From: a virus
Lineage: Duplodnaviria; Heunggongvirae; Uroviricota; Caudoviricetes
DNA length: 36,583 bases
Virus record (IMG/VR): IMGVR_UViG_2585427727_000016
Reading direction: 5' to 3' (one strand)
Shown here piece after piece: positions 4,572-36,583 of the stretch. Each line of letters starts with the position of its first letter. Positions within the stretch are counted from its first letter, which is position 1. Below the pieces are notes generated by a model. That model ran no database searches and was not told the DNA's origin. It saw nothing but the letters and a program-made list of their open reading frames with translations. Both the position numbers and the translations under genes were made by a program.

Positions 4572-5756
4572 ATGAGTGAAACTCGTTTTCATGGTGCCCG
4601 TGTTACGGAAAATACCGACCTGGTAACAGCGATTAACGATGTTGATTCCAGCGTTATCGGTATCGTGGCAACGGCGGATGATGCGGACGCGAAGCTGTTC
4701 CCGCTGAACAAGCCCACACTGCTGACCCGCGTCAATGACGTGCTGGGAAAATGCGGGACAACGGGGACGCTTTATCGTGCGCTTAAGGCCATCGCAGACC
4801 AGGTGAGTACAAAGGTGATCGTCGTTCGCGTGGCTGAACACAAAGAAGAAGACGGAAAAACGCAGGATCAACTGGTTATCGGTGGTTCTGAATCTGACGG
4901 CAGCTATACGGGGATGTATGCGCTGCTTGTTGCAGAGCAGGATGAAAGCATCGGATACCGTCCGCGTATTCTGGCCGCGCCGGAGCTGGACACGGAGGCG
5001 GTAACAAAATCCCTGTGCGTGATTGCGGGTAAACTGCGCGCGTTTGTGTATGCCTCATGTCACGGCTGTAACACGATGGCTGAGGCGATTACCTACCGCC
5101 AGAAATTCAACGAACGTGAGGTGATGCTCTTATGGCCGGACTTCATCGCCTACAACCCGAAAAGTGGCAAAAACGAAACGTTCCCCGCGCCTGCCTATGC
5201 GTGCGGCCTTCGTGCGTACATTGACCATGAGCAGGGCTGGCACAAATCGCTGTCCAACGTTCCGGTTAAAAATGTGCTGGGGATGTCCAGGCATGTGTTC
5301 TGGTCGTTGCAGGCCGAAGACAGTGATGCCAACAGCCTCAACAACAAAGAAATCACGACCATTATTCGTCGCAACGGGTTCCGCTTCTGGGGCAACCGCA
5401 CACCGGAAACGAACGCCTACATCTTTGAGGTGTATACCCGAACCGCACAGGTGCTGGCTGATTCAATTGCGGAAGCGCAGTTTGAAACCATCGATAGTCC
5501 ACTGACGCCTGCGAACGTGAAGGATGTTATCAGTGCCATCAGGGCAAAACTGGATTCACTGGTTACTGCCGGGAAACTGATTGGGGCGTCGTGCTGGTAT
5601 GACGTGGTGGATAACAGCACCACGGATTTACGTCAGGGGCGTGTGCGTATTCGCTACAAATATACGCCCGTTCCTCCGCTGGAAGACATGGAGCTTTACC
5701 AGTCGTTTACTGATGAATTCTTTGGTCCCGCATTTGCGGTGCTGGGAGGTGCCTGA
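4572..5756 (+). CDS. FI: contractile tail sheath protein FI
   Basis: 394 aa; size and sequence character of P2 FI; followed by overlapping FII start. Confidence 0.9.
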   Translation: MSETRFHGARVTENTDLVTAINDVDSSVIGIVATADDADAKLFPLNKPTLLTRVNDVLGKCGTTGTLYRALKAIADQVSTKVIVVRVAEHKEEDGKTQDQLVIGGSESDGSYTGMYALLVAEQDESIGYRPRILAAPELDTEAVTKSLCVIAGKLRAFVYASCHGCNTMAEAITYRQKFNEREVMLLWPDFIAYNPKSGKNETFPAPAYACGLRAYIDHEQGWHKSLSNVPVKNVLGMSRHVFWSLQAEDSDANSLNNKEITTIIRRNGFRFWGNRTPETNAYIFEVYTRTAQVLADSIAEAQFETIDSPLTPANVKDVISAIRAKLDSLVTAGKLIGASCWYDVVDNSTTDLRQGRVRIRYKYTPVPPLEDMELYQSFTDEFFGPAFAVLGGA

Positions 5757-6268
5757 TGGCTGTACCAAAACATCTTCGCTTTTTTACGCTGTTTGTGGAT
5801 GGTGAAAACGAAGTGGGTAAGGTGACGTCCGTCACCCTGCCTAAACTGACGCGCAAAACCGACAGCTACCGGGGTGGTGGCATGATGGGTGCGGTAAGTA
5901 TTGATCTCGGTCTGGACGACTCCGCGCTTGATGCGAGCTTTGTCATGGGGGGCGCAGTTCGTGAGCTGTTCCTTAAGTATGGCGGCACGATTGACGGCAC
6001 GCTACTGCGTTTTGCGGGTGAATACTACACCGATGCAGAAAGCGACCTGTATGAAGTCGAAATGCGCGGACGCGTGACGGAAATTGATATGGGGGAAGCC
6101 AAACAGGGCGAAGCCACATCACACACTTACGCCATTAAAAACACCTACTACAAGCTGAGTGTTAACGATCGTCCGTTGTGGGAGATTGACCTGCTGAACT
6201 TCATTTACCGGAAGGACGGCAAGGACATTGTGCCCGATCGCATCCGTTCCGCGCTTGGGCTTGGCTGA
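5756..6268 (+). CDS. FII: tail tube protein FII
   Basis: 170 aa; ATG overlaps FI stop; P2 FII-like. Confidence 0.9.
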   Translation: MAVPKHLRFFTLFVDGENEVGKVTSVTLPKLTRKTDSYRGGGMMGAVSIDLGLDDSALDASFVMGGAVRELFLKYGGTIDGTLLRFAGEYYTDAESDLYEVEMRGRVTEIDMGEAKQGEATSHTYAIKNTYYKLSVNDRPLWEIDLLNFIYRKDGKDIVPDRIRSALGLG

Positions 6269-6322
6269 TAAGTAATATGCAGGCGGCGCAGTGCGTCGCC
6301 TCTGACTGAAAGGAGTTTCCTG

Positions 6323-6688
6323 ATGAAAGAGACGAAAAACATCGATACCGAAAACACGGTAGTTGCTGACACTGTGAAAGAAACCAGTGAGCGTGGCGTA
6401 AAACTTACCCAACCAATTGAGCGAGGCGGCGAAAAAATCACGTATGTGGAGATCACCGGGGCTATTGAGCAGGCTGGATCTCTGCGAGATTTGTCGCTGT
6501 CTGATGTGCTGAATCTGAAAGCGGAATCCATGTTTACGCTGCTGTCACGAGTGACATCACCGCGACTGGATGAAGTGACGATCAAAAAAATGGCATCCCG
6601 TGACTTTATTCAGTTATGTGTGGTTGCCGTAAATTTTTTGAGCGGTGCGGACTCTGGCGGGAAGAACGAACAGGCGACGGAAGCCTGA
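6323..6688 (+). CDS. E: tail assembly chaperone E
   Basis: 121-aa ORF with RBS, directly upstream of tape measure gene; contains the slippery site. Confidence 0.8.
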   Translation: MKETKNIDTENTVVADTVKETSERGVKLTQPIERGGEKITYVEITGAIEQAGSLRDLSLSDVLNLKAESMFTLLSRVTSPRLDEVTIKKMASRDFIQLCVVAVNFLSGADSGGKNEQATEA

Positions 6689-6852
6689 TCACGGTTGTGT
6701 GCTTTGAGCACATAGAAGACTTTGTGGCAGATATTGCCGTTATTTTTAACTGGTCGCCCGCCGAAATCTTCATGATGACGCCCGGCGAAGTGGTTAGCTG
6801 GCGTGAGCGGGCGGCACTTCGCAGCGGGAATGCAGACAATGAAGACTCTTGA
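6323..6852 (+). CDS. E': tail assembly chaperone E+E' made by -1 programmed frameshift at 6634..6640
   Basis: heptamer T_TTT_TTG in the E frame (AAT TTT TTG); -1 frame open from there to a stop at 6850..6852 (FFERCGLWREER...NADNEDS). Confidence 0.65.
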
Positions 6853-9646
6853 TATCCGGGTCGCTTTCAGCGCCGTTGACAGGCTGACCCAGCCTGCCGA
6901 AAACGCCCGCCGCCTGATGGGGCAGTTTGGTGACTCCATCCAGCGAACGCAGGGGGCGATCAAAAATCTCGAGCGTCAGGCGCGTTCATTTGAGCGCGCC
7001 CGCGACGCTGTCAGTAAAGCGGATGCGGGTATCGTGAAAGCACGACGCCAGCTTAACGCCCTTAATCAGTTACAACGCACGGGTACAGTGCTCAGCGAAA
7101 AACAACAAAAGCTGATGCAGCAGTTAAGCACCCGGCTTGAACGCCTGAATGAATCGCGCACGCGGGAAATTCAGAAAATGCGGGAGCTTGGCGGAGAGCT
7201 GAAACGCCACGGCATTTCCCTGACAGGCAGCGATAACACCATCCAGCAGGCCATCAGACGCACCGAACAGTACAACAATCAGCTTGAACGCGAACGGCAG
7301 GCGCTTGCGCGTGTAACGCGGGCGCGTGAGCGGTATTCGCGCGCGCAGGAAACAGCGGGAAAACTGAAAACAGGTGGTGCACTGGCAATTGGTGCGGCAG
7401 CGGCGGGCGGCTATGCTGCCGGGCGTTTTTTGCAGCCTGCGATCGGGTTCGGCAAAGAGATGTCCCGCGTTCAGGCACTGACGCGAATCGACCAGAACAG
7501 CCCGCAGTTTAAGGCGCTGCGTGAGCAGGCGTTAAAACTTGGCTCTGAAACGCAGTTCACCGCAGGCGATGCCGCCAGTGGACAGGCATTTCTTGCAATG
7601 GCTGGCTTCACTCCGCAGGCCATTCAGGCTGCGCTTCCCGGCGTGCTGAGCATGGCAACGGCTGGCGGTATGGATCTCGGCGAGACGGCAGATATTGGCT
7701 CAAATATCCTGACGCAGTTCGGCCTTTCTGCTGACCAGATGGACCGGGTCGGTGACACACTCACCGCAGCGTTTACCCGTACCAACACTGACCTTCGCGC
7801 ACTGGGCGAAACCATGAAATATGCAGGTCCGGTGGCGGGTAAGCTGGGAATATCGCTGGAGCAGACCGCAGCGATGGCGGGCGTGCTGGCGAATATGGGC
7901 ATCAGAGGGAGTGATGCCGGGACGGCAATGCGTGCCAGCCTGGCTCGTCTGGCATCACCGCCAAAGGCGGCGGCAGAAGCTCTGAAAGAGCTGGGCGTGT
8001 CCGTTTCGGATGCCGGGGGCAAAATGCGCCCGATGGAAGATCTGCTGGCTGACCTTTATAAAGCTACCCGCAAATACGGGGAAGTTGACCGGGTATCCTT
8101 CTTTAAGGATATCGCCGGGGAAGAGGCTTTCACATCGTTTATGGCACTCGTTGATGCGGCGGGGGACGGGTCCTTACCCAAACTGAGAAAAGAACTTGAG
8201 GGCGCACGCGGTGAGGCTGAACGCACGGCAAAGGTTATGGCCGACAACCTTGATGGCGACCTGAAAAATCTCGACAGCGCATGGGAAGGTCTTCGTATTC
8301 GCATCAGTGATCTGGTTGACGGTCCGCTGCGTTCTGTCACGCAGTGGCTAACACGGGTGGTCTCAAAGGTGACGGTACTGGCGCAGGCCCATCCTGTACT
8401 GACGCGCCAGCTACTGATTGCAGGCGGTGCGCTGCTGGCAGTGACTGCAACCGTAGGCTCGTTGTCGCTTGCTCTTGGTGTGCTTGCTGGCCCGCTGGCA
8501 AAACTGCGTCTTGGTTTTTCCCTCCTGACCGGATCAATGAATGCTGTCAGGCTCCTGCCAGCACTATGGGGAATGGTGACGGGTTCCGTTTCTTTGCTGG
8601 GAGGTGCTATCGGGGCGCTGTTCAGTCCGGTTGGTCTTATCGTGGCTGCGCTTGCCGGAGCTGCCGTTCTTATCTGGAAATACTGGGATCCCATCAGGGC
8701 ATTTTTTGCCGGGGTGTTCAGCGGGATTATGGAAAGGCTGACCCCGTTGCGCGAAACTTTTGAACGGTTTGGTCCTGTTTTTGACGCAATCGGAAGCGGG
8801 ATCAGCCAGGTGTTTAACTGGTTTAAATCGCTACTGTCACCGATGGAGTCCAGCAAGGAAACGCTGGATAAATGTACCAGTGCTGGCGAGATATTCGGTA
8901 ACGTTCTTGGCGGTGCGTTACAACTTGTTCTGACACCTGCAAAAATGCTACTGGATACGCTGGCGTGGATACTTGAAAAACTTGGCGTCCTTCCGGATGA
9001 AGCGGAAAGGGCGCGCAAGAAAATCGAAGACGCACAGCGTGCGGCCATTCTTCAGGACAAGGTAGCCTTACTTCAGGGGGACCTGGCGAAAATCAATCCG
9101 CCGAAGCCTGTGGAAAATGGCAATGGCACCGGAGGTGATAAACCCAAAGACAACAAACCGCTCACAGACAGCAATACCGGGACGCTACGCAGACTCAGCA
9201 AAATTGCTGATAACACAGGTAAGCTGGTTGATGAGACGAAAAAACGCATTGGCCCCGGCGATATTGTCTTTAAGAACCTGCCCCGCGCACTTGCTGTTCG
9301 TGGGGAGTGGCAGGAGCGGAAGATTACACAGGTCAGTAAGCCTGCCCCCGCAATTAATATCACCCCCGTGGTTCCGGCTCCGCTGCCTCCGGCGCTGGTC
9401 CCTGTTGTTGCGGCCAGCTCTCACCCGGTGGCGGAGGCCATACGATCGCCAGTGGCATCAGTTCCTGCAACTTCCCGTAACCGGGAGCCTGTTGCCTCCG
9501 GATTTGGTGGTGAAATTCATGTTCATCTGCATAACGTTGTTACGCAGAATCCCCGCGAACTGGCGAAACTGGTCGGTGAAATGGTCAGGGCAGAAATGGA
9601 ACGGCGTGCCCATGCCGGGCGTGGCAGTTTTTACGATAAAGATTGA
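6830..9646 (+). CDS. T: tail tape measure protein T
   Basis: about 940 aa; coiled-coil N-terminal region, Ala/Gly-rich hydrophobic central segment; start at 6830 or 6839 overlapping the E' stop. Confidence 0.9.
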   Translation: MQTMKTLDIRVAFSAVDRLTQPAENARRLMGQFGDSIQRTQGAIKNLERQARSFERARDAVSKADAGIVKARRQLNALNQLQRTGTVLSEKQQKLMQQLSTRLERLNESRTREIQKMRELGGELKRHGISLTGSDNTIQQAIRRTEQYNNQLERERQALARVTRARERYSRAQETAGKLKTGGALAIGAAAAGGYAAGRFLQPAIGFGKEMSRVQALTRIDQNSPQFKALREQALKLGSETQFTAGDAASGQAFLAMAGFTPQAIQAALPGVLSMATAGGMDLGETADIGSNILTQFGLSADQMDRVGDTLTAAFTRTNTDLRALGETMKYAGPVAGKLGISLEQTAAMAGVLANMGIRGSDAGTAMRASLARLASPPKAAAEALKELGVSVSDAGGKMRPMEDLLADLYKATRKYGEVDRVSFFKDIAGEEAFTSFMALVDAAGDGSLPKLRKELEGARGEAERTAKVMADNLDGDLKNLDSAWEGLRIRISDLVDGPLRSVTQWLTRVVSKVTVLAQAHPVLTRQLLIAGGALLAVTATVGSLSLALGVLAGPLAKLRLGFSLLTGSMNAVRLLPALWGMVTGSVSLLGGAIGALFSPVGLIVAALAGAAVLIWKYWDPIRAFFAGVFSGIMERLTPLRETFERFGPVFDAIGSGISQVFNWFKSLLSPMESSKETLDKCTSAGEIFGNVLGGALQLVLTPAKMLLDTLAWILEKLGVLPDEAERARKKIEDAQRAAILQDKVALLQGDLAKINPPKPVENGNGTGGDKPKDNKPLTDSNTGTLRRLSKIADNTGKLVDETKKRIGPGDIVFKNLPRALAVRGEWQERKITQVSKPAPAINITPVVPAPLPPALVPVVAASSHPVAEAIRSPVASVPATSRNREPVASGFGGEIHVHLHNVVTQNPRELAKLVGEMVRAEMERRAHAGRGSFYDKD

Positions 9647-9652
9647 GGAGTC

Positions 9653-10147
9653 ATGGCCATGATGATGATCTACGGCATGTTTGTTTTTGAGCTGCGCACG
9701 CTGCCGCATCAGCAGTTACAGCAAAACAAAAGCTGGCGGCATGTGAAAAATGAACGCGTTAACCGTTCAGCAAGCTGGCAGTATATCGGTGCAGGTGATG
9801 ATCGCATCGTTCTTTCTGGTGTGCTTTATCCTGAAATTACAGGTGGCGAAGTGTCGCTGTCGCTGCTGACCACGCAGGCGTATACAGGACGCCCCTGGCC
9901 TCTTATTGATGGCGTCGGGCAGATTTACGGCATGTATGTCCTGACCGAAACGAATACGACCCGTTCCGAGTTTGATCGCTACGGTAAGGCGAAAAAGATA
10001 GAATTTTCACTGACCCTTGAACGCTGTGATGAGGATTTGCGGGAGCGCCTGCAATCCTCATCGTTCAGCGATATTCTGTCCGGCTTCAAAGATAAAGTGA
10101 CATCATCCCTTAACAGCGCGGCCAGTTCAGTTAAAGGGCTGTTCTGA
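9653..10147 (+). CDS. U: tail protein U
   Basis: 164 aa immediately after T with GAGGAG RBS; P2 U-like. Confidence 0.85.
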   Translation: MAMMMIYGMFVFELRTLPHQQLQQNKSWRHVKNERVNRSASWQYIGAGDDRIVLSGVLYPEITGGEVSLSLLTTQAYTGRPWPLIDGVGQIYGMYVLTETNTTRSEFDRYGKAKKIEFSLTLERCDEDLRERLQSSSFSDILSGFKDKVTSSLNSAASSVKGLF

Positions 10148-10317
10148 TTTAATGCTGGCCACTCATACCCTCATACCTGGTAATAAGTGGCCAGTCTTAA
10201 CACTCACCATTTGATTGCACCTGTGTTAACGATTTGTTACTGGGTATCAGACACGCTGGATAGCCAGTAGAAACATACCATTAAAATTATTACAATAATT
10301 GGTCACATGATTATCTT

Positions 10318-10881
10318 ATGCTGAATAATAGAGATATGAATATTAATGAACTTAAAGACTGTATTCACTATGAAGTAATCGGTAGCGAGCGTCCTTTCTC
10401 CTGGCGAAAGGCAATTGTTCGCGCAATAAAACATAGAAGACTTCGTTATTTATTTTGGTGGCGCATAGCCAAATACCTTTTTGATAAAGGCGGATACTGT
10501 CGGAAGATTGCGGGGAAAATAGAACGTTTCATTCTTGATAAATATAATGTAACAGTCCCTTTAACTGTAAATATAGGGAAAGGTTTTGATATTTCTTATC
10601 TCAACAGTGTTGTTATCGGTCACAAAGTAACAATCGGTGAAAATTGTTCAATAAAACCGGGGGTAACTATTGGGCTACGTGGTGATTTTAATGATATGGA
10701 TATTGTTATAGGACATAATGTGACCATTGGTTGTAATGCCACCATTCTTGGTGGCAAAGTGCGTATAGGAAACAATGTCACAATAGGTGCTCATGCATTG
10801 GTATTGCATGATATTCCTGATGATTCAACATTCATCACTAAATTTCAGTCTGAAGTTATCTGCTCGTCCTCCCGCACATAA
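10318..10881 (+). CDS. hexapeptide-repeat (left-handed beta-helix) acyl/acetyltransferase; cargo at the Z/fun position
   Basis: repeated [LIV]-G-x-x-x-x hexapeptides ([21 protein letters not shown]...[34 protein letters not shown]); strongly AT-rich compared with flanking phage genes; start codon uncertain. Confidence 0.7.
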
Positions 10882-11462
10882 CCCTGATTCATCAGCTCTG
10901 GCCATACGATATCCGGAGCTGTACTGGTGTCAATTCTACTCACTAATACTCTGTATTTTCTCCAGGAATCCAGTTGTGAATTTTCCTCGTTTGTTGCTAT
11001 TTCAAGATTAACTGCATCCTGCAGGATTGCGATGTTATCTGTTGCCTCCTGGATCAACCTTGCCTTTTTCTCTTCCGCTTCCCGTATCCGAAACAGTTTT
11101 TCTGCTTCCTCATCCTTCACCCAGGATACGCCGTCCCACTTCTGATATTCCCCTGCTGGCGACAACCAGGTGACATTCTCTGGTAGCGGTCCGGGTTCAG
11201 AAATAAACAACGCGTCCCCCGATGCCACGTCATAGACCGTTTTACCACGATGGTCTTCAACAATATTCCACGATTCATTTTCACTGTTAAAAACTGCCAC
11301 AAAGCCAGCAGGAATTTCCGGTGGGGCGATATCTGTAGAATTAGCTGGCAGCCCTGTATGAGGTGGAATATATGCGTCACCTTCACCAATAAACTCATTA
11401 GTTCCGGCCAGCAGGTTATAAATTTTTACAGTGCGTGATTGTTCACTCATTCTGAATGCCAT
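10845..11462 (-). CDS. G: tail fibre assembly protein G
   Basis: 205 aa; start overlaps H stop (TAATG); P2 G-like. Confidence 0.85.
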
Positions 11463-13462
11463 TATGCAAGCCTCACAATATAATTAAATGCGATGTTTTT
11501 AACGGTGTTTTCCGCGTTACCAGCAGCGTTAACGGTGATGGTATGTCCATGTGAACCAATCGCAACAGAGTGCGTATGAGCGCCAATACCAACAGTGTGT
11601 GCATGTGCCCCAGCACTTGTAGCGGTGCCTGATACTGAGTGGGTATGTGCGCCAGAAGAAGGCACAGTTCCATTCCCTACCACCGTGCCACTTGATGCAC
11701 CATCCAGCCAGTCGAAATTCATACCGCCACTGTTTGGTCTCCTTAATGGCACGGTATGAGTATGTGCGCCAGCACTATTTGCAGTACCAGATACATTGTG
11801 GGTATGTGCACCTGTGTTATTCGTTGATTTAGTACCGTAATCAAACGAAGATGTGGTTTTCGTACCCAAATCCGTATTGGATGCGCTGGCGCTGTGGGTG
11901 TGCGATTTAATGCCATCCTGTTCCAGAGACAATACGTCCCGACCACTGGCGGGTTTGCCCTTGATTGTCCAGCCACGCATATCGGGGAGTACACCAGAGG
12001 GATAAGCTGCTGCAAGCAGGGGATAGGTTGTTTTATCAAAAGTCTGCCCCTGCATAACGGCATAGCCTGTAGGCACTGAATCAGAAGGCCACGGAATCGC
12101 CGCACCTACAGGAAATGAATCCTGCGGCGTCCATGCTGTCCAGTCACCCGTTGAGTACTGGCTGCGGGTATAGCTTCTGGATGTGTTATACACATAGTAA
12201 ATCTGTGTTATCCCGGCATTTTTAAGCACAACCAGTGTACCGGCAAGATTCTCTGGGTATTTCAGCGCTGCACTTGTATAGGCATTCAGGGGTTGATGGT
12301 ACAGCCCCGGCGTTTTGTAATTATCCAGATTCTGGTTTGCACCAATATTAATACTCTGACCGTTAAAAATATCCTGTGATGTAACATTGACATCATTGGT
12401 CAGTGGTTTGCCATTAACCTTACGTCCAGAGGGCACACGCCCGTTTGCATTGTCATTAGCAGCTTTAACCGCTTTCGGGGTCGCGGCAAGCGTTTCAGAC
12501 GTGCTGTTGGTCGCGTTGCTAAGCTGAACTATCCCTTTCTGTGCTGTCGTTGCATCCTGTGCGGTGTATTTCCCGTTAGCCAGCTCATACGCGGCCTTAA
12601 CGGCTTTTGGCGTTGCCGCCAGTGACTCGGAAGTGCTGTTAGTCGCACTGCTGAGCTGGATAAGACCTTTTCGCGCTGTGGTAGCGTCCTGTGCGGTATA
12701 TTTCCCGTTAGCAAGGTCATATGCTGCCTTTACCGCCTTTGGTGTTGCCGCCAGCGTTTCAGAATCGCTGTTGGTGGCGCTACTGAGCTGGACAAGGCCT
12801 TTTCGCGTTGTGCTGGCATCCTGCGCAGTATATTTCCCGTTAGCAAGGTCATACGCGGCCTTTACTGCTTTCGGCGTTGCAGCTTGTGTTTCAGACACGC
12901 TGTTAGTGGCGCTACTGAGTTGAACAAAGCCTTTTGCGGTCAGCGAGGCATCCGGGTGACGTCGTGACTGTTCATGCTCTTTCAGTTTGTTATCCACGTA
13001 ATCCACTGTGGCCATCACCATGGTGTTATCCACGGTAAGCGCCACAGTGGCAGTGCTGGATACGGTCAGAATGGTGCGAAATGTTTGTGCACGACCGGAC
13101 CCTTCGGCAACGGCTGGCTTGTAACTTTCGGCAGTATTGCCCACCGCGATTAAATCGCCGTGCTCATCAAACACACCAATTTCCCGGATCCAGAATCCGC
13201 CCGTTTCTGGAGGAATAACCAGCTCCGCAATAATGCGATTCTGATGTGTTGCGTCCAGGATGACGCGATTAACAGTATGTCGCCACACCTCATGCACCAG
13301 ACGGGTCTGCTTACTGTCTGGTGTGGGCAACGTGCCGCCACCGTCGCCCACGGCCATATGAGTCAGGCGGACAGGCTTACCATCTGGCGCGGCTGCCTGA
13401 GCTAATTTTTTTGCACCCGTATCGGTGATAACGGTTTTAAATTTTCGTGTTGTGGTACTCAT
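11462..13462 (-). CDS. H: tail fibre protein H
   Basis: 666 aa; conserved N-terminal region, four internal 44-aa tandem repeats, His-x-His-rich C-terminal tip. Confidence 0.9.
12430..12955. repeat. four tandem coding repeats of about 132 bp inside gene H
   Basis: DNA period visible by eye (GTATTTCCCGTTAGC...); protein repeat [38 protein letters not shown] x4. Confidence 0.8.
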
Positions 13463-26408: not shown

Positions 26409-26720
26409 TTACTCAGGAAATAACGCCCGGATATTCCCAGCCATCTGGCTGGTTATCTTAGCCACTGGTGCAGACTGTGCTTCAAACTTTTTTGAGCTGA
26501 TTTGTGTCACAGGTAACATCTCATCATCAGCCCATGCGGCCAGTCGGTAAGCCTCTGCCGGATTCGTCTTCAGAAGTGCCAGCCCGGCCAGAAAAGCCAC
26601 GCGTTGGCCGCTTTTGCGGGCTTCTGGTGTAAGGCTGTCCAGCCAGGCGCATGCTTCTCCTTCGTTCTTGACGGCAGCTGGCTTCAGATAGAAACTTATT
26701 CTTCTGGTTGGTGTCGTCAT
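26409..26720 (-). CDS. parR: ParR/StbB-like centromere-binding adaptor
   Basis: 103 aa; RISFYLKP...LDSLTPEARKSGQRVAFLAGLAL resembles the ParR N-terminal ribbon-helix-helix region as I remember it; AAGGAG RBS; 4 nt after the parM stop. Confidence 0.65.
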   Translation of the reverse strand: MTTPTRRISFYLKPAAVKNEGEACAWLDSLTPEARKSGQRVAFLAGLALLKTNPAEAYRLAAWADDEMLPVTQISSKKFEAQSAPVAKITSQMAGNIRALFPE

Positions 26721-26724
26721 TGGT

Positions 26725-27684
26725 TTACTCCTTGTTCATTGCGTACAGCCCATTAACCAGAGCAAAATGTGGCACCCCGTCCGTGATGAAAGTCGCATTA
26801 ACTCCGCAGGCTTCGCGGATAGCGGGTGCCACAATCTCCGCCCCTCCACCGACAACCATCACCCGCCCGTAACCGGAAAAACCCGCCAGCGCGCGGATCA
26901 CTCGTTGTTTCAGTGTCTCCTCCTTTTCACGAATAACCGCCATCAGGCTGTTGTAATGCGCGTCATTGTGAATGTGCTGGCGCAGCCAGGCTTCATCGTG
27001 ACGGTGCTCAATAATGGTATTGGCGATGTGGTGACTGGTACGCATACCGTTAGTGGCCATCACCGACAGCACGGCATCAGCCATCAGGGAAACGCCTACG
27101 TGTGGATCGCAAAACACCTGGCTGATACCTGCCAGCTGCCCCTGAACCTTTGCCACATCCAGCGTGGTTCCGCCCAAATCCACAATCAGCAGGGATTCAA
27201 ACGGACTCATGTCAGCCAGTGCCTTAAAGCCAGCCGGAATGGATTCAGGCATAACCCGCACGTTACGGATAGTGAATGCTTCGCCGTTCTGGTACTCCAC
27301 CGGGCGCATAACGTTCGCTTTTTTGCGGTTGATGTTGGCTATGTCCGGCTGTGCGTTTGTGTCGAAATACTCGCTCAGTGGCAGGGTGACAACCACATCC
27401 ACCTCCTGTGGCGTGATGCCTGATTTGACCAGCGCGTGATGAATGGCAATGACATTCACATCACTGTACTGGTATTGCGTGTCGGTCGTCTGGACAAAGC
27501 GATCGCTGACCGGATCAAAACCATAGCGCACGCCATCAAGCATGTAGTTCGCGGGCTGCGTGCCACCGAACGGCGCAGACCATTCCGACTTGAAGCTGTT
27601 CGGGCTGATGGCGTTGCGGCGTTCGCCGTTCTCAGTCCATGCCAGCTTGATGTTGGTGGAGCCGTCGTCGATACAAATTTTCAT
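26725..27684 (-). CDS. parM: ParM/StbA-family actin-like ATPase
   Basis: 319 aa; MKICIDDGSTNIKLAW...ISPNSFKSEW and YSDVNVIAIHHALVKSGI closely match the ParM N-terminal phosphate-binding motifs I remember from plasmid R1. Confidence 0.8.
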   Translation of the reverse strand: MKICIDDGSTNIKLAWTENGERRNAISPNSFKSEWSAPFGGTQPANYMLDGVRYGFDPVSDRFVQTTDTQYQYSDVNVIAIHHALVKSGITPQEVDVVVTLPLSEYFDTNAQPDIANINRKKANVMRPVEYQNGEAFTIRNVRVMPESIPAGFKALADMSPFESLLIVDLGGTTLDVAKVQGQLAGISQVFCDPHVGVSLMADAVLSVMATNGMRTSHHIANTIIEHRHDEAWLRQHIHNDAHYNSLMAVIREKEETLKQRVIRALAGFSGYGRVMVVGGGAEIVAPAIREACGVNATFITDGVPHFALVNGLYAMNKE

Positions 27685-27713: not shown

Positions 27714-27827
27714 CGTTTACGGGATTCTGAAATCCCGTTTTTGCCTGTTTTTTGCGCGCTTCATATATCGCTGCGCGTTTTTTGCTCATTTACGGGATTC
27801 GTGAGTCCCGTTTCTGTCTGTTTTTTG
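27714..27827. repeat. two tandem hairpin-containing direct repeats of about 40 bp (candidate centromere or terminator-like elements)
   Basis: 27714..27754 and 27787..27827, each ACGGGA(TT)-loop-(AA)TCCCGT followed by T-rich CTGTTTTTTG; first copy intergenic, second inside the 3' end of gene A. Confidence 0.6.
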
Positions 27828-30583
27828 TTTCCACTGGTCAGGCCACCCTGCAGCAGGTCTGCTTTGCGGCTGGCGCGTTCAGTGGTTTCACTGATTCTCT
27901 GTGCGTGCTCTGCGTCGCGGATGGCGCGCAGCATGTCAGAAAGCACGGTAACGGGTGTTTTCATGGTGTTCTGATCCTGCTGAAGTGCGGATGCCAGGCG
28001 TGCGGCGGCTTCGGGGTCTGATGCCCCCAGCTGTGCCAGATAGCTGGCGACCGGGTTATGGCGGATCTCCGTGCTGCTTACGCCGTGATTACGGCTCAGG
28101 TGCTGCCAGAGCTGCGTGATTCGGCTGTCCGTGCGGGTATCCGGTTTGCGTACAATTTCATATCCCTGCGGTGCAATGATGCTGCCGTCAACGTACAGGC
28201 TGCCGCCCCGTAGCAGGTGCTGCGTCTGCTGTTCACCGATATGCAGGCCGAGAGATTCGGCAGACTCCCGCCATTCTTTAGCGAGTAATTCGTGGTTATC
28301 AGGCAAAGGCCGCTGCTGTTTGCGGCTCTGTGTCCAGCTCTGCATTTCATCACTGCTGTTTTTTGCCTGTTTGTCACGAAGCGAACGCATCAGCGCCCGG
28401 CGTTCGTGCCGTTTCAGTGAGCGCATCCATTCGTTCACTTCAACGCCGTCAGGAAGCTGCGGCCACGGTGCTGGCCGTTCTTTCGACTGTTCTGTCCCGC
28501 TGTTGCCTGTTTCCTGTACACGGGGACAGTTATTGCCACGAGTCCAAGGGGCGGCAGGGCCGCCCTGAAGGTCAAAACCATTTTCGCGGGCGCTGTCTTC
28601 CGCTTCCGGTTTACGTCTTACCAGCTTCCAGTTATCCGGATGTGTGCACACACGGGAAGACTCCCCGATGAGTGGTGACCAGATCCCGTAAATCTGTACG
28701 CTCTGTTCGCCGTAATCGTTCAGCTCATCTGCGAGGTCGTAGGCGGTGCGAATCAGGTAGTCTTTGCGTGGAACAAGTACGCCGCCCTGTTTTTCAATGT
28801 AGGAGGCAAAACACCCGGCATCAGCGGCAGCGAGCACTGCATCCATTGCGTCATCCTTCAGCTGTTGCGGGCCTTCCGGGTTGCGTGCCATCTGGCTGGC
28901 AAGGCGGCGCAGTTCACGCCACACCTGACGGGAGGGGATGCCAAAGAACTGGAACTGGCGGACCCGGTGAAGGCGCGCCCAGCCGATGGCGCGCTCCACG
29001 CTCTCGGCCATTGATTTTCCGGTTTCGTGGTCAACGCGTGGCTTGCCCGTTTTCGGGTCGATACCATCCACGGCGCGGCTGTCCAGGTTCTTTCCGATGT
29101 AGGTGGCGATGTAGCTGGTCGGTGTGCCTTTTGAGCCGTCGACGTACTCTGCCTTAAAGCGTGGGGTAATATCATCACCCAGCTCGTGACGATCTTCCTG
29201 AATGGCAATATCGCGGGTGTGGGACACAATGGTGTCGATTTCTTCCGGATGAGCAAAGACCATCATATGCCAGTGCACGGTGCCGTCATGGTGAGGCTCC
29301 ACCGTGCGGATGCCATACCAGCGCAGGCCGTCGCGGTTCAGTTTCTTGCGGACCGCCGCAAAAAACGAGTTAACCAGGTAATCGCTGGAGTCGCGCATAG
29401 TGGCCCCGTTCCATTTGGGATTCGGATGACCGTTCTCCGTTGTTGCGTGGTATTTTGACGGGCAGGTGACAGTCAGAAACACCGCTCTGTCGCCACGGGC
29501 TTCGGCCAGAAGTTCCAGCCCCTTCATGGTGGCCATCATTTCTGCCTTACGGTGAACCGGGTTACTTACTCCCGCGTAATACACTGTCTCAAGATCAATC
29601 GTGAACCCGTCTTCGTTTTCCAGCATGAAACTTTTCAGGAAATCGCGTGTTTTCTCGCGCTGTGCGCGAAACTCGCTTAACGCATCCTGGCTCAGATAGG
29701 GCGATGTTTTTCTGGAAACCAGACAGGCGGCGCGGAGTTGTTCTTCTCTCCACTCGCAACGTAACAGCCACAGTTTGCGTTTCCACCATTCCGTACAGGT
29801 CAGGCGAAGGATTGCGCCCGGCAGCAGCTCCGTGTCTGGTTCGTTCCTCCGGCCTTTGTCTGTTGTCAGTGCGTCATAATGCGGAGGCATGGCGTGCAGG
29901 TGTAACGCCATGCGGGCCAGCATCTGATACGCCTTCAGCGTTACATCCATGGTCAGCTCGCCATCAGTCGCACCAAAGCCATCGCAGAGTTTTTCGAAGG
30001 TGCTGCTGAACATCGCCGCCGTCATGGTGGCCAGCGTCTGTATCTGGTGTTTGTTGAGCTGCGGCAGGTAAAGCAAATCGTCCAGGCGTTCGCGTCCGGC
30101 AAGGGAGCGATAACCCGGTGTCAGCCAGTGTCCGTCAGTGCGATCCAGACGTTCGAATATTTTGCGCAGGGTTCCGCGTGCATAGCGTTCCGCCTGCCAG
30201 CTCTTTTTGCCTTTCCGGCGATCAGCTTCCTGTTTTTTGCGCAGGAAGGAGAGGTGGCGAATAAGCGGATCGCGCAGATAGGACGGCAGCAGGCGCAGCG
30301 AGGCCATGGCTTCATCCACCGCGCCGCGTGCCTGTTTTCTGGCGTCTCCTGCCAGTGTGATGGTTTTGTCCTGTTTTTCCTGTGCGTCCAGGCTTTTATT
30401 AATCAGGTTGCCCAGCGGCGTGGCGGAGAACGCCGCATCAGCCATTTCCTGGCGGCGCTCGTTCTCTACCCGGTAGGCACCCAGCCAGGAGGAAAGCGCG
30501 GATTCAGGAGCGGGGATCCCCGTTCCTTCACGCCCCACTGCGTGGCGCGGTTGTTGCCAGTCCCTGATGTACTCTGCCGTCAT
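27761..30583 (-). CDS. A: replication initiation protein A (rolling-circle HUH endonuclease)
   Basis: 940 aa; HUH-like motif (VHWHMMVF) and catalytic Tyr motif (YIATYIGK) typical of P2-family gpA. Confidence 0.9.
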   Translation of the reverse strand: MTAEYIRDWQQPRHAVGREGTGIPAPESALSSWLGAYRVENERRQEMADAAFSATPLGNLINKSLDAQEKQDKTITLAGDARKQARGAVDEAMASLRLLPSYLRDPLIRHLSFLRKKQEADRRKGKKSWQAERYARGTLRKIFERLDRTDGHWLTPGYRSLAGRERLDDLLYLPQLNKHQIQTLATMTAAMFSSTFEKLCDGFGATDGELTMDVTLKAYQMLARMALHLHAMPPHYDALTTDKGRRNEPDTELLPGAILRLTCTEWWKRKLWLLRCEWREEQLRAACLVSRKTSPYLSQDALSEFRAQREKTRDFLKSFMLENEDGFTIDLETVYYAGVSNPVHRKAEMMATMKGLELLAEARGDRAVFLTVTCPSKYHATTENGHPNPKWNGATMRDSSDYLVNSFFAAVRKKLNRDGLRWYGIRTVEPHHDGTVHWHMMVFAHPEEIDTIVSHTRDIAIQEDRHELGDDITPRFKAEYVDGSKGTPTSYIATYIGKNLDSRAVDGIDPKTGKPRVDHETGKSMAESVERAIGWARLHRVRQFQFFGIPSRQVWRELRRLASQMARNPEGPQQLKDDAMDAVLAAADAGCFASYIEKQGGVLVPRKDYLIRTAYDLADELNDYGEQSVQIYGIWSPLIGESSRVCTHPDNWKLVRRKPEAEDSARENGFDLQGGPAAPWTRGNNCPRVQETGNSGTEQSKERPAPWPQLPDGVEVNEWMRSLKRHERRALMRSLRDKQAKNSSDEMQSWTQSRKQQRPLPDNHELLAKEWRESAESLGLHIGEQQTQHLLRGGSLYVDGSIIAPQGYEIVRKPDTRTDSRITQLWQHLSRNHGVSSTEIRHNPVASYLAQLGASDPEAAARLASALQQDQNTMKTPVTVLSDMLRAIRDAEHAQRISETTERASRKADLLQGGLTSGNKKQTETGLTNPVNEQKTRSDI

Positions 30584-35482: not shown

Positions 35483-35578
35483 GGCCAGAAAACTGGTTAG
35501 ACCTGCTCTTTGTCTGGTCTGATTATTGCTGGAAAGAGGCTGGAGAAATTGTAGGGCGGTTCATTGGAGGGCTTCGCA

Positions 35579-36583
35579 ATGTCAATTAAGAAGCTCGAAG
35601 ATGGTCGTTATTTGCTGGACATCAGGCCGAACGGACGCAAGGGAAAGCGCGTGCGTAAGGTATTTGACAAAAAATCGGTAGCGGTGGCCACTGAACGCTA
35701 CATCATGGCGAACGCTGAAAAGCGGGAATATATACAGGGCTACCGTGATCGCCGAACGCTAAATGATTTGCTTGAGTTGTGGTGGATGTATCACGGTCAA
35801 CACAGGCGTAAGGCGGAAGAAGACCGAAAACAACTGTGCAACATAATCAATGAGCTTGGCGCTGATATGCAGGCTGTGGATCTTGATAAGCTGAAAATTA
35901 TCGCGTGGCGTTCTCAAAAGATAGCTGCTGGATTGAAACCGTCATCTGCTAACAGGTACATGAATCGGTTATCCGGAATGTTTACCGTGCTGAAAAAAAT
36001 AGGTCTTTGGGATGCAGAACATCCAGTAAGGGGAATTTCTATTCTTTATGTATCTCCACGAGAAATGGCGTTCCTGTCACAGAAGGAAGTGGCGCTATTG
36101 CTCGATACACTGGAGGGTGACTACTGGCGTGTTGCGCTTTTGTGTTTAAGCACAGGGGCGCGCTGGAGTGAAGCTTGTAAGCTTCGTGGTGAACAGATAG
36201 TTCATAACCGTGTAACGTTTCTTGAAACCAAAAATGGCCGGAAGAGAACGGTGCCAATTTCACAGGCGGTTTGTGAGGCGATCAGAACCAGAGAAACAGG
36301 CAACTTGTTTGAGGTGAAGTACCGGGAATTCTGCCTGGCGCTGAAAAGGGTTAAGCCCGATTTGCCAAAAGGCCAGGCTGCGCATGTGCTGCGGCATACG
36401 TTCGCCAGCCATTTTGTGATGAACGGAGGAAACATTATTGCGCTTCAGAAGATTCTTGGCCACGCAACCATTCAGCAAACAATGGCATATGCACATTTTG
36501 CACCGGATTACCTGCAGGATGCGGTGGCCCTTAATCCGCTGAAAGGTGGCGTGAGTGTCCACGCAGTGTCCACGGGGGATTAA
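35579..36583 (+). CDS. int: tyrosine integrase
   Basis: about 334 aa from ATG with GGAGGG RBS (ORF track starts at a TTG at 35564); C-terminal R...HxxR...Y catalytic pattern (AHVLRHTFASHF...MAYAHFAPDY); ends at window edge. Confidence 0.9.
   Translation: MSIKKLEDGRYLLDIRPNGRKGKRVRKVFDKKSVAVATERYIMANAEKREYIQGYRDRRTLNDLLELWWMYHGQHRRKAEEDRKQLCNIINELGADMQAVDLDKLKIIAWRSQKIAAGLKPSSANRYMNRLSGMFTVLKKIGLWDAEHPVRGISILYVSPREMAFLSQKEVALLLDTLEGDYWRVALLCLSTGARWSEACKLRGEQIVHNRVTFLETKNGRKRTVPISQAVCEAIRTRETGNLFEVKYREFCLALKRVKPDLPKGQAAHVLRHTFASHFVMNGGNIIALQKILGHATIQQTMAYAHFAPDYLQDAVALNPLKGGVSVHAVSTGD

Follow-up and report, generated by a model that had tools for sequence, protein, structure and literature searches.

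What role does an AT-rich gene for an acyltransferase-like protein play when it lies between the tail and tail-fibre genes of a prophage, and on which molecule would its product act? The gene (10318-10881, plus strand), which we call the cargo gene, lies in a 36,583-nucleotide stretch of viral DNA (IMG/VR record IMGVR_UViG_2585427727_000016; the whole stretch is referred to as the window). The window is an E. coli prophage of the P88-like Xuanwuvirus type. A sequence-only reading had described the gene as a hexapeptide-repeat acyltransferase at the position of P2 Z/fun, and had proposed that it modifies a surface polysaccharide or inactivates a small molecule. Our analysis favors an envelope glycan, most likely the lipopolysaccharide (LPS) core, as the target.

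The cargo gene is intact and encodes a predicted left-handed β-helix protein

The ORF list and Pfam define the cargo gene as a 187-aa, ATG-initiated reading frame for a hexapeptide-repeat acetyltransferase-like protein; a second in-frame ATG at 10336 would yield a product of 181 aa, the length that RefSeq annotates in identical copies. Pfam Hexapep (PF00132) matches the protein with E=1.1e-12 (47.5 bits versus a cutoff of 27), and a motif scan located six units of the consensus [LIV]-[GAED]-x2-[STAV]-x between residues 100 and 161. In an AlphaFold2 monomer model (pLDDT 90.8, pTM 0.84), four N-terminal helices precede a left-handed β-helix, and the top Foldseek matches of this model in the PDB were all β-helix serine acetyltransferases (probability 1.00). 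The fold assigned earlier from the sequence was therefore borne out by profile, repeat and model. The protein also matches phrog_2154, a PHROG family of phage proteins without known function, over nearly its whole length (E=7.2e-79; protein residues 5-186, profile positions 2-184 of 185).

The reading frame is complete and has been kept by strong purifying selection. Its 187 aa are full length relative to homologues of 177-193 aa, and dN/dS was 0.041 and 0.085 in comparisons with copies at dS 0.115 and 0.284, respectively. The possibility that it might be a truncated remnant can be set aside. Its base composition, 37.1% GC (29% at third codon positions, GC3), is close to that of the spacer upstream of it (38.2%) and well below that of gpU (50.3%), the tape-measure gene (57.0%), the tail-fibre assembly gene tfa (46.3%) and the window as a whole (52.3%), so that calculation upholds the low GC previously noted by eye.

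Genomic slot and upstream spacer

On the left the slot is bounded by gpU (9653-10147, plus strand; PF06995 Phage_P2_GpU, E=5.5e-39), which closes the FI-FII-E-T-U tail operon; the alignment to P88 (98.1% identity) ends just beyond it, at 10152. To the right lies tfa (10845-11462, minus strand; PF02413 Caudo_TAP, E=1.6e-39), the equivalent of gpG, followed by the tail-fibre gene H (11462-13462, minus strand; Pfam Phage_fiber_2, Collar and Phage_tail_fib). Homology to P88 resumes only at 12594, inside the 132-bp fibre repeats of H. The cargo gene and tfa converge and share 37 bp at their 3' ends, in agreement with the placement between U and G first proposed.

The further equation of this position with that of P2 Z/fun holds on one side. 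P2 fun(Z) likewise follows G and is convergent with it; however, the FI-U tail operon is inverted in Xuanwuvirus relative to P2, and the same slot in P88 and phiSM is occupied by a DNA invertase with an alternative set of fibre and Tfa genes. The window lacks the invertase and the second fibre/Tfa set and has instead one fixed fibre tip, its Tfa and the cargo gene. Nor are the products related: a BLASTP comparison of P2 Fun(Z) with the cargo protein gave a best E of 7.7, which is no homology.

The 170 bases between gpU and the cargo gene (10148-10317) are non-coding and contain a hairpin and a promoter-like site. The hairpin, an inverted repeat on the plus strand with 18-nt arms and a 16-nt loop (10149-10200), lies directly 3' of the gpU stop codon and probably marks where the tail-operon transcript stops, as a putative terminator. 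Its loop carries an 8-bp duplication (CTCATACC x2), an insertion that an alignment of copies revealed in the window only; no other tandem repeat was detected in or upstream of the cargo ORF. A consensus scan identified the putative promoter (10268-10296, plus strand) as TAGAAA-17 nt-TACAAT, with 9 of 12 positions matching, ending 22 bp 5' of the ATG at 10318. The site falls within a 70-bp upstream stretch that is retained in all contexts in which the gene occurs: the copies in 47-kb plasmids, in phage 613R2 and in strain F5656C1 conserve it, and the P1-like copy, homologous to the window from 10248 onward, has TATAAT.

Since the cargo gene is absent from the viable phages P88 and phiSM, its position is non-essential. 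Together with foreign GC, convergent orientation and the putative promoter of its own, this gives the gene the sequence attributes of a prophage moron.

The cargo gene is linked to Tfa and a fibre tip on three phage backbones

In comparisons with other loci, cargo gene, tfa and fibre tip stayed together on three phage backbones: the Xuanwuvirus prophage, 47-kb phage-plasmids and P1-like phage-plasmids. The gene is not a free-standing insertion but one component of a mobile cassette of about 1.9-2.06 kb, 93-97% identical across these backbones. Blastn against fetched loci placed the extent common to the 47-kb phage-plasmids and phage vB_EcoM-613R2 at 10057-12115, and P1-like copies share 10248-12097 of it; upstream, the 47-kb plasmids still contain a piece of the 3' end of gpU.

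Of H, the cassette includes the 3' end (11462-12115, minus strand), encoding the C-terminal ~216 aa with the receptor-binding tip, which is 93.6-95.6% identical in the P1-like and 47-kb phage-plasmids up to 12097-12115. The 3' part of tfa (10845-11064) is specific to the cassette; from 11065 on, tfa is 80-90% identical to tfaR/tfaQ, and in other E. coli genomes homology begins at query position 184, which is window position 11065. Rac/Qin-type stfR-tfaR/tfaQ fibres resemble the tip at 82-88% identity, and some fibres of this type bind OmpC and not LPS.

The cassette is carried by 57 records of plasmids and by about 181-186 of E. coli genomes. Among complete E. coli genomes, about 3% have the cargo gene; the Tfa/tip allele (at least 90% identity) occurs in 181 records, nearly as many as the 183-186 with the cargo gene. 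The ends of fibre modules are a general hotspot for cargo genes, and position alone is therefore no proof of a functional link.

So strict a linkage with Tfa and the fibre tip, including the 37-bp overlap, would also be expected if the cargo protein were part of the fibre module and acted on its own virion, by acylating or assembling the tail fibre or Tfa. A distant, 31%-identical relative in Streptococcus thermophilus 987-group phages agrees with such a role: it lies directly 3' of the receptor-binding-protein gene, between this and the holin gene, and is co-oriented with the late genes. However, the enterobacterial fibre-adjacent genes that we inspected all run opposite to the late operon and differ from it in base composition, relatives are also found away from any phage, and the fibres of P88 and phiSM function without a cargo gene (PMC5285337). 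We consider a virion-directed role very improbable.

A tyrosine occupies the canonical catalytic histidine position

Across the β-helix acyltransferase fold, a conserved catalytic histidine serves as general base (PMC8786284, PMC3046976). Three independent HMMER alignments to CysE structures placed Tyr94 of the cargo protein opposite His158 of E. coli CysE. In a family alignment of 234 sequences (233 homologues and the window protein), the corresponding column holds His in 213, Tyr in 15, Asn in five and a gap in one; besides the window protein, Tyr is borne by 13 members of its clade and by one outlier. The family motif IGKGFxIxH accordingly reads ...SY in the cargo protein. Mapping of the CysE catalytic and serine-binding residues, with the list and roles taken from PMC8786284 (E. 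coli numbering), paired Asp143, Asp157, His158, Arg192 and His193 with Thr79, Ser93, Tyr94, Met127 and Asp128.

The clade alignment contained no substitute catalytic histidine that is invariant across the Tyr clade: His102 occurs only in members at least 65% identical, and His133 and His159 vary. In the E. coli subclade, His102 falls in the column of Glu170 of the Neisseria enzyme, a residue that the adjacent subunit supplies to the active site, and a histidine is found in this or the preceding column in 98 of the 234 aligned sequences. Purifying selection extends through the Tyr clade down to 53% identity; the substitution is therefore old and tolerated. With Tyr at the canonical histidine position, acetyltransferase activity, and ordinary O-acetyl transfer in particular, is not to be assumed.

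Members of the Tyr clade might thus dispense with ordinary transferase chemistry, either as pseudoenzymes that bind a ligand or a protein and could for example sequester an LPS or polysaccharide intermediate or an acyl-CoA, or through a reaction that can proceed without a strong base, such as N- or S-acylation. The rarity of Tyr94, the further departures from the CysE active site at residues 79, 93, 127 and 128, and the selection that persists despite them all speak for this view. It is opposed by the fibre-adjacent position common to His- and Tyr-bearing members, which suggests the same role for both, by the His102 alignment, which would permit a relocated base, and by the full conservation of the β-helix core and glycines. 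We regard it as distinctly unlikely.

The RefSeq/GenBank product name, "serine acetyltransferase", implies a genuine CysE that would boost host cysteine synthesis, and CysE enzymes are indeed the closest solved structures both by sequence and by fold. Nevertheless, the CysE models scored far below their cutoffs (TIGR01172, 70.6 bits versus 210.65; PRK11132, 44.4 versus 397), the C-terminus reads SSSRT, and all five mapped residues that define the CysE active site differ. This last result shows the public name to be wrong, and we judge a true CysE function to be exceedingly improbable.

Other named subfamilies fared no better. The EpsC model reached E=7.6e-23 (81 bits versus a cutoff of 150) and WcaB E=4.7e-17 (models NF007564, 61.9 versus 196, and TIGR04016, 59.8 versus 194.65); we rejected WcaB identity on this sub-cutoff score and on the location of the gene in a prophage fibre module, outside a wca cluster. 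Matches to Vat, CatB, LacA and Maa covered the generic repeat region only, at 24-32 bits versus cutoffs of 300-475. NeuO and OatWY were absent among 54 PDB sequence matches (E≤1e-3), and a NeuO/OatWY-type enzyme was rejected for want of a sequence relationship, a His/Trp catalytic pair and a 5' heptanucleotide tract. Because all NCBIfam equivalogs considered (CysE, EpsC, WcaB, WbbJ, LacA, Maa, Vat, CatB and NeuD) scored below cutoff, we give the protein no subfamily name; of the candidates proposed at the outset (NeuO, WbbJ, CysE and LacA), the homology search left none that fits.

Gene neighbourhoods of some relatives suggest a possible link to the LPS core

Elements carrying the gene or its family occur in many E. 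coli backgrounds and in Klebsiella, Citrobacter, Hafnia, Proteus and Salmonella. In five places a relative of 37-59% identity faces tfa or a fibre gene in convergent orientation: Hafnia phage yong2, C. rodentium phage phiNP, the P1-like JL22, a Salmonella Mu-like prophage and a Proteus mirabilis prophage. The JL22 gene is a more distant family member within the cin-flanked region. Such repeated placement beside fibre genes across genera, to which the S. thermophilus relative next to its receptor-binding-protein gene can be added, supports the receptor-masking reading given below.

Among chromosomal relatives, one in Leminorella grimontii (40% identical, His retained) lies inside the LPS-core (waa) operon, in the order waaJ-like, waaY, waaZ, β-helix gene and then an O-antigen-ligase-family gene in convergent orientation; the Leminorella WaaZ shares 65% identity with that of K-12, and the intergenic gaps are 38 and 27 bp. 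A WaaZ-like gene again lies directly 5' of the relative in Halomonas, and in Edwardsiella the relative abuts arnT/E/F-like genes. This link to LPS comprises two or three genomes, with relatives 39-41% identical to the window protein. Other chromosomal contexts were uninformative, as in Erwinia typographi (Crp-like regulator, Usp) and [Erwinia] mediterraneensis (chemotaxis receptor gene), and the neighbours at three Pseudomonas loci had no Pfam match or matched only PHROG families of no known function. Two relatives (P0014 and P0022) lie within islands holding transposase fragments, and another (P0015) is among a run of three tandem β-helix paralogues.

The acceptor could instead be an O-antigen unit, enterobacterial common antigen, colanic acid or capsule, with serotype conversion or immune evasion as the outcome in place of core modification. 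The best named profiles, EpsC and WcaB, are polysaccharide acetyltransferases, distant ~185-aa relatives that keep the His motif are numerous in Flavobacterium and other bacteria, and NeuO provides a precedent. Yet those profile scores are far under their curated cutoffs, the wide host spread argues for a broadly conserved acceptor and against a serotype-specific polymer, and no relative that we inspected is in an O-antigen or capsule cluster, while one is in a waa operon. We consider a lysogenic-conversion acyltransferase with such an acceptor unlikely.

If the protein acetylated a small molecule instead (for example an antibiotic or toxin, a metabolite or a signalling nucleotide), the lysogen would gain a trait independent of the fibre, be it in resistance, fitness or anti-phage defence. 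The fold includes the xenobiotic acetyltransferases Vat, CatB, LacA and Maa, to which the protein has weak profile matches, and P2-type phages carry defence cargo next to their fibre genes, fun(Z) with its block of T5 being one case. The confinement of these matches to generic repeats counts against this alternative, as does the result that no PADLOC-DB defence-protein model matched the cargo protein at E≤1; it would also leave unexplained both the waa-operon member and the tight linkage to one fibre-tip allele. Of the two targets envisaged from the sequence, the comparative evidence thus favors the surface glycan, and we assign the small molecule a low probability.

Experiments have identified LPS outer-core glucoses as the receptors of two phages: phiNP, which has a family member, and phiSM, which has the backbone of the window (PMC6456863). 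Lysogens of phiNP are still infectable by phiSM, and the family member therefore confers no broad exclusion of LPS-core-binding phages in K-12. The literature that we found mentions the family in passing only: the family gene is listed among phiNP fitness genes (PMC6456863), and the S. thermophilus 987-group relative is drawn in a figure legend (PMC6213268). A literature search for a prophage hexapeptide O-acetyltransferase associated with a tail fibre gave no result.

Proposed mechanism and significance

The reading that we favor, to which we give slightly less than an even chance, is that the cargo gene encodes a modifier of envelope glycans, most likely of the LPS core, that is expressed in the lysogen and masks a phage receptor. 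The gene would be transcribed in the lysogen from its own promoter, as a self-transcribed moron. Its product is predicted to be a cytoplasmic, probably trimeric, left-handed β-helix acyltransferase-like protein that may use acetyl-CoA as donor, and its substrate would most likely be a lipid-linked envelope glycan, most plausibly the LPS core oligosaccharide. Such a modification would alter the receptor surface seen by LPS-binding tail fibres, so that superinfecting phages would be excluded and released progeny might be spared adsorption to debris. In this reading the gene passes on, by inheritance and by exchange, as a single unit with the receptor-binding tip of the fibre and the chaperone of the latter. 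There is a precedent in NeuO, a prophage β-helix O-acetyltransferase whose acetylation of the K1 capsule makes cells less susceptible to phage (PMC3046976, PMC13001214).

On a more tentative view, which we think doubtful but worth stating, fibre tip, chaperone and a receptor-editing enzyme would form one exchangeable "specificity plus immunity" cassette. The enzyme would be a non-canonical β-helix transferase of the LPS core that dispenses with the general-base histidine and has a relative in a hitherto overlooked core-modifying gene beside waaZ. A phage would then acquire a new host-range module together with the means to mask its receptor on the lysogen.

If LPS-core modification is correct, a mis-annotated gene represents a new class of LPS-modifying lysogenic-conversion factor, and its diverged relatives in many Enterobacterales prophages and phage-plasmids fall in the same class. 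Carriage could then alter phage susceptibility and possibly outer-membrane antigenicity or permeability, with relevance to the prediction of host range in phage therapy and to the spread of P1-like and other phage-plasmids. Strict co-transfer with the fibre tip would then offer a testable case of a receptor-binding module with a matched receptor-masking function. The conserved Tyr at the general-base position poses a small enzymological puzzle in a very well studied fold, and the waaZ-adjacent relative points to a possible undescribed step of LPS-core decoration in some Enterobacterales and Halomonas.

Comparison with known systems

NeuO, the polysialic-acid O-acetyltransferase of E. coli K1 prophage CUS-3, resembles the cargo protein in being prophage cargo with a soluble left-handed β-helix acyltransferase fold, and it modifies a surface glycan that is a phage receptor, with lowered phage susceptibility as the result (PMC3046976, PMC13001214). 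The two proteins have no detectable sequence relationship, however, and where NeuO relies on a catalytic His/Trp pair, the cargo protein has Tyr in place of the His. NeuO is also phase-variable through heptanucleotide repeats that are missing from the cargo gene, and it is specific to K1 hosts, whereas the cargo gene occurs in many backgrounds.

The best structural match is the truncated four-helix isoform of CysE (Foldseek E about 5e-8, TM-score 0.66-0.74), and short CysE isoforms share the four N-terminal helices and β-helix with the cargo protein (PMC13040420). CysE serves cysteine metabolism, whereas the context of the cargo gene is that of a phage moron. Exopolysaccharide acetyltransferases of the WcaB/EpsC type are members of the same branch of the fold, which is short and CysE-like, and their substrates are lipid-linked sugar intermediates on the cytoplasmic side of the membrane; they differ from the cargo protein in that its scores against them are sub-cutoff and its gene lies outside any wca or eps cluster.

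P2 fun(Z) is similarly AT-rich, non-essential and located directly after G in convergent orientation. Its other neighbour, in contrast, is the FI promoter, where the cargo gene has the end of the inverted FI-U operon, and its product is a 528-aa protein annotated as blocking T5, with no sequence similarity to the cargo protein. The invertible host-range segments of P88, phiSM, Mu and P1 consist of an invertase with an alternative tip and Tfa, elements for which the window has no counterpart beyond its single fibre-Tfa set; in Xuanwuvirus, however, it is precisely this slot, from gpU to the fibre genes, that they fill, and both arrangements manage the specificity of fibre for receptor.

The cargo gene and its prophage setting

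The window is an almost complete E. coli prophage of the P88 type (Xuanwuvirus, Peduoviridae). Its tail operon FI-FII-E-T-U (4572-10147, + strand) runs head-on to the baseplate and fibre genes J-I-H-G (14884 down to 10845, − strand); elsewhere lie gpD and ogr (4546-3002, −), replication gene A (27761-30583) and the integrase gene (35564-36583). In DNA searches, the gpU region was 97-99% identical to phages P88, 500465-2, P884B11 and Citrobacter phiSM, and the chromosome of E. coli O6:H16 strain M9682-C1 was 100% identical over the stretch studied. A plasmid-style partition module (26409-27684, −) coexists with the integrase in this integrated prophage: a gene for a ParM-type actin-like segregation ATPase (26725-27684, −) lies beside one for a Plasmid_stab_B protein (26409-26720, −).

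The sole ORF between gpU and the tail-fibre assembly gene tfa (the G equivalent; 10845-11462, −) is the cargo gene (10318-10881, +; 187 aa), which shares 37 bp with tfa at their 3′ ends; the RefSeq start in identical copies is the ATG equivalent to 10336. The sequence-only reading had placed an AT-rich, hexapeptide-repeat acyltransferase-type gene between U and G, and this was confirmed: the protein matches the Pfam hexapeptide repeat (E=1.1e-12) with six consensus repeat units, and the gene has 37.1% GC (GC3 29%) compared to 50-57% in neighbouring tail genes and 52.3% in the window overall. The interval proposed earlier (10148-10881) contains this real ORF, preceded by 170 non-coding bases. 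The predicted fold consists of four helices followed by a left-handed β-helix (pLDDT 90.8).

A hairpin (10149-10200) directly follows gpU, and a promoter-like TAGAAA-17-TACAAT (10268-10296) lies upstream of the cargo gene. The hairpin loop carries an 8-bp duplication (CTCATACC x2, 10162-10177) that is unique to the window copy and absent from all four of the other cassette copies aligned. In a sequence scan, terminator-like sites were absent between the convergent cargo gene and tfa; the only ones reported nearby lay ahead of the gpU stop (one) and within tfa (two). Because of this arrangement, late transcription through tfa should run antisense across the cargo gene, and cargo-gene transcripts made in a lysogen would extend, as antisense, into tfa and H.

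A second low-GC island (1001-2700, minimum 32% GC) lies beyond ogr and gpD. It contains a zinc-ribbon ORF (2161-2538) and two small adjacent ORFs (1875-2156 and 1246-1500, −) whose products match the T6SS VasI family, one its N-terminal and the other its C-terminal part; the pair thus resembles a VasI-like cargo gene that has been split or frameshifted. ORF1 of phiSM is reported as a "T6SS VasI family protein".

A mobile cassette of cargo gene, tfa and fibre tip

In P88 and phiSM, the gpU-to-G slot is occupied by a DNA invertase together with an invertible second set of fibre tip and Tfa. P88 homology in the window ends at 10152 and restarts at 12594, within an array of 132-bp repeats inside H (12463-12953; 3.7 tandem copies, 78% matches) that corresponds to Phage_fiber_2 repeats. 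Since homology resumes inside this array, the repeats are probably a recombination site for fibre-tip exchange. The intervening non-P88 DNA comprises the upstream region, the β-helix gene, tfa and the final ~216 codons of the fibre gene, whose tip resembles Rac/Qin-type side fibres.

This cassette recurs at 95.5% identity in 47-kb phage-plasmids and phage vB_EcoM-613R2 (from window 10057), and at 93.6% in P1-like phage-plasmids (from 10248). Upstream of it, the 47-kb plasmids and vB_EcoM-613R2 still have a remnant of the gpU 3′ end, which shows that the cassette originated in a Xuanwuvirus-like setting. At least 80% of the cassette is present in 57 plasmid records, and the cargo gene occurs in 184 of 5,426 complete E. 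coli genomes, at 159 chromosomal and 59 plasmid places. The fibre-tip/Tfa allele of the window was found at an identity of at least 90% in 181 records, near the cargo-gene count, and ~3,800 more records, of stfR/tfaR and tfaQ types, match solely from 11065 on, with identities of 80-90%. These counts define the allele-specific unit as the β-helix gene plus the last ~70 tfa codons, attached in every case to this fibre tip. The first distinguishing feature of the gene is this obligate link to a cassette of fibre tip and chaperone, mobile among P2-like, P1-like and plasmid-prophage backbones.

The cargo gene is intact

Whether the gene might be a truncated remnant, as the earlier reading had allowed, is answered by its full length relative to homologues and by dN/dS values of 0.041 and 0.085 (dS 0.115 and 0.284) against the 47-kb-plasmid and P1-like-plasmid copies, respectively. 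The gene is live: a real, intact and widespread prophage cargo. The few disrupted copies in other genomes reflect an IS1 insertion, deletions or partial ORFs. In E. coli F5656C1, the same Xuanwuvirus locus has decayed (L011, 6167-7932): deletions have removed tfa, the greater part of the fibre gene and some of the baseplate gene, and the β-helix gene remains, with an altered 3′ end. In this degrading prophage, the cargo has outlasted the fibre genes.

A misnamed protein with tyrosine in the general-base position

The nearest solved structures are CysE enzymes (sequence E=6e-12; fold E ~5e-8, TM-score 0.66-0.74). The public-record name, "serine acetyltransferase", is nevertheless wrong: the CysE model scores far below its cutoff, and the residues with catalytic or serine-binding roles in CysE (PMC8786284) are all replaced (Asp143→Thr79, Asp157→Ser93, His158→Tyr94, Arg192→Met127, His193→Asp128). 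Curated models for EpsC, WcaB, WbbJ, LacA, Maa, Vat and CatB also fell far below their cutoffs, so that homology search did not yield the WbbJ/CysE/LacA-like subfamily assignment suggested earlier. PADLOC defence models gave no match to the protein, and a search for similarity to P2 Fun(Z) found none. The family is phrog_2154, annotated as function unknown.

The family motif IGKGFxIxH terminates in the general-base histidine described as common to enzymes of the β-helix fold (PMC8786284, PMC3046976). When the window protein and 233 homologues were aligned, this column carried His 213 times, Tyr 15 times, Asn five times and a gap once. Of the 15 Tyr sequences, one is an outlier; the rest comprise the window protein and 13 members of its clade. 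The Tyr clade, which includes a Hafnia phage gene, reaches down to 53% identity, and the closest relatives with His (45-49% identity) otherwise show great similarity; the substitution is therefore an old, lineage-specific change that purifying selection has maintained. This tyrosine is the second distinguishing feature of the protein.

With this histidine missing, the protein may use a relocated base: the CysE residue aligned with His102 of the E. coli subclade belongs to the active site and comes from the adjacent subunit (Glu170 in the Neisseria enzyme), and 98 of the 234 sequences have His in this or the preceding column, with Arg or Leu at the His102 column in more distant Tyr-clade members. 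Alternatively, it may perform chemistry that needs no strong base, or may have turned into a binding protein.

Relatives lie beside fibre genes in other phages

Relatives are convergent with tfa in Hafnia phage yong2 (53% identity) and C. rodentium phage phiNP (39%), and with a Caudo_TAP gene in a Salmonella Mu-like prophage. A Proteus mirabilis prophage relative overlaps the end of a fibre-like gene, after baseplate genes; two E. coli types lie at the ends of HP1/P2-like prophages; and in virulent Streptococcus thermophilus 987-group phages a relative (31%) lies immediately downstream of the receptor-binding-protein gene, ahead of the holin gene. In P1-like JL22 (L019, 1773-6120), the distant, His-bearing "sacF" (37%) lies between the alternative U′ and a lambda-type tfa within the cin-flanked region, and inversion could therefore shift its position relative to the fibre promoter. 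These relatives are too diverged for recent transfer to explain their shared position; the fibre-module end is a general cargo hotspot.

The SSU5-like IncFIB phage-plasmid pCUVET18-789.1 (L017, 3908-4810) has another enzyme-like cargo gene in its fibre module, a macro-domain gene inserted between the tail-fibre gene and tfa. A chromosomal, non-phage setting occurs in Enterobacteriaceae bacterium BIT-l23 (L008, 6001-7697), where three tandem β-helix-family paralogues (181, 193 and 195 aa) adjoin an OprD-family porin gene.

A possible role in modifying the LPS core

The evidence for a role at the envelope, and at LPS specifically, is fourfold. The gene behaves as a moron: its composition is foreign, it has a conserved upstream region of its own, and it is transcribed against the late genes, as is typical of prophage-expressed genes. 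It is also co-inherited with the receptor-binding tip. A Leminorella grimontii relative (40% identity to the window protein, 59-63% to prophage-borne members) sits inside an LPS-core operon, ordered GT8 glycosyltransferase, WaaY, WaaZ, β-helix gene and a convergent O-antigen-ligase-family gene (gaps of 38 and 27 bp; waaZ-like/β-helix pair at 3153-4540 of L024). Its WaaZ is 65% identical to that of K-12, and the β-helix gene takes the position held there by waaU. In Halomonas (L030, 3177-4560), a WaaZ-like gene directly precedes a β-helix relative; conservation of this pair in two distant genera suggests that WaaZ is tied to an as yet undescribed step in core decoration. An Edwardsiella relative abuts arnT/E/F-like lipid-A modification genes. 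Lastly, knockouts, complementation and adsorption assays identified LPS outer-core glucose residues as the receptors of phiNP and phiSM (PMC6456863); phiNP carries a family member, and phiSM has the same backbone as the window.

On these grounds and the NeuO precedent, the protein would modify an envelope glycan that is lipid-linked, with the LPS core as the most probable target, and would thereby mask a phage receptor. We advance this LPS-core, receptor-masking version tentatively, at a little short of an even chance, and have higher confidence in envelope-glycan modification in general. Any masking would not be broad, since phiSM still infects phiNP lysogens. NeuO-like phase-variation repeats were looked for at the cargo gene and none were found. 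NeuO itself is a prophage-encoded β-helix O-acetyltransferase that modifies the K1 capsule and lowers phage killing (PMC3046976, PMC13001214).
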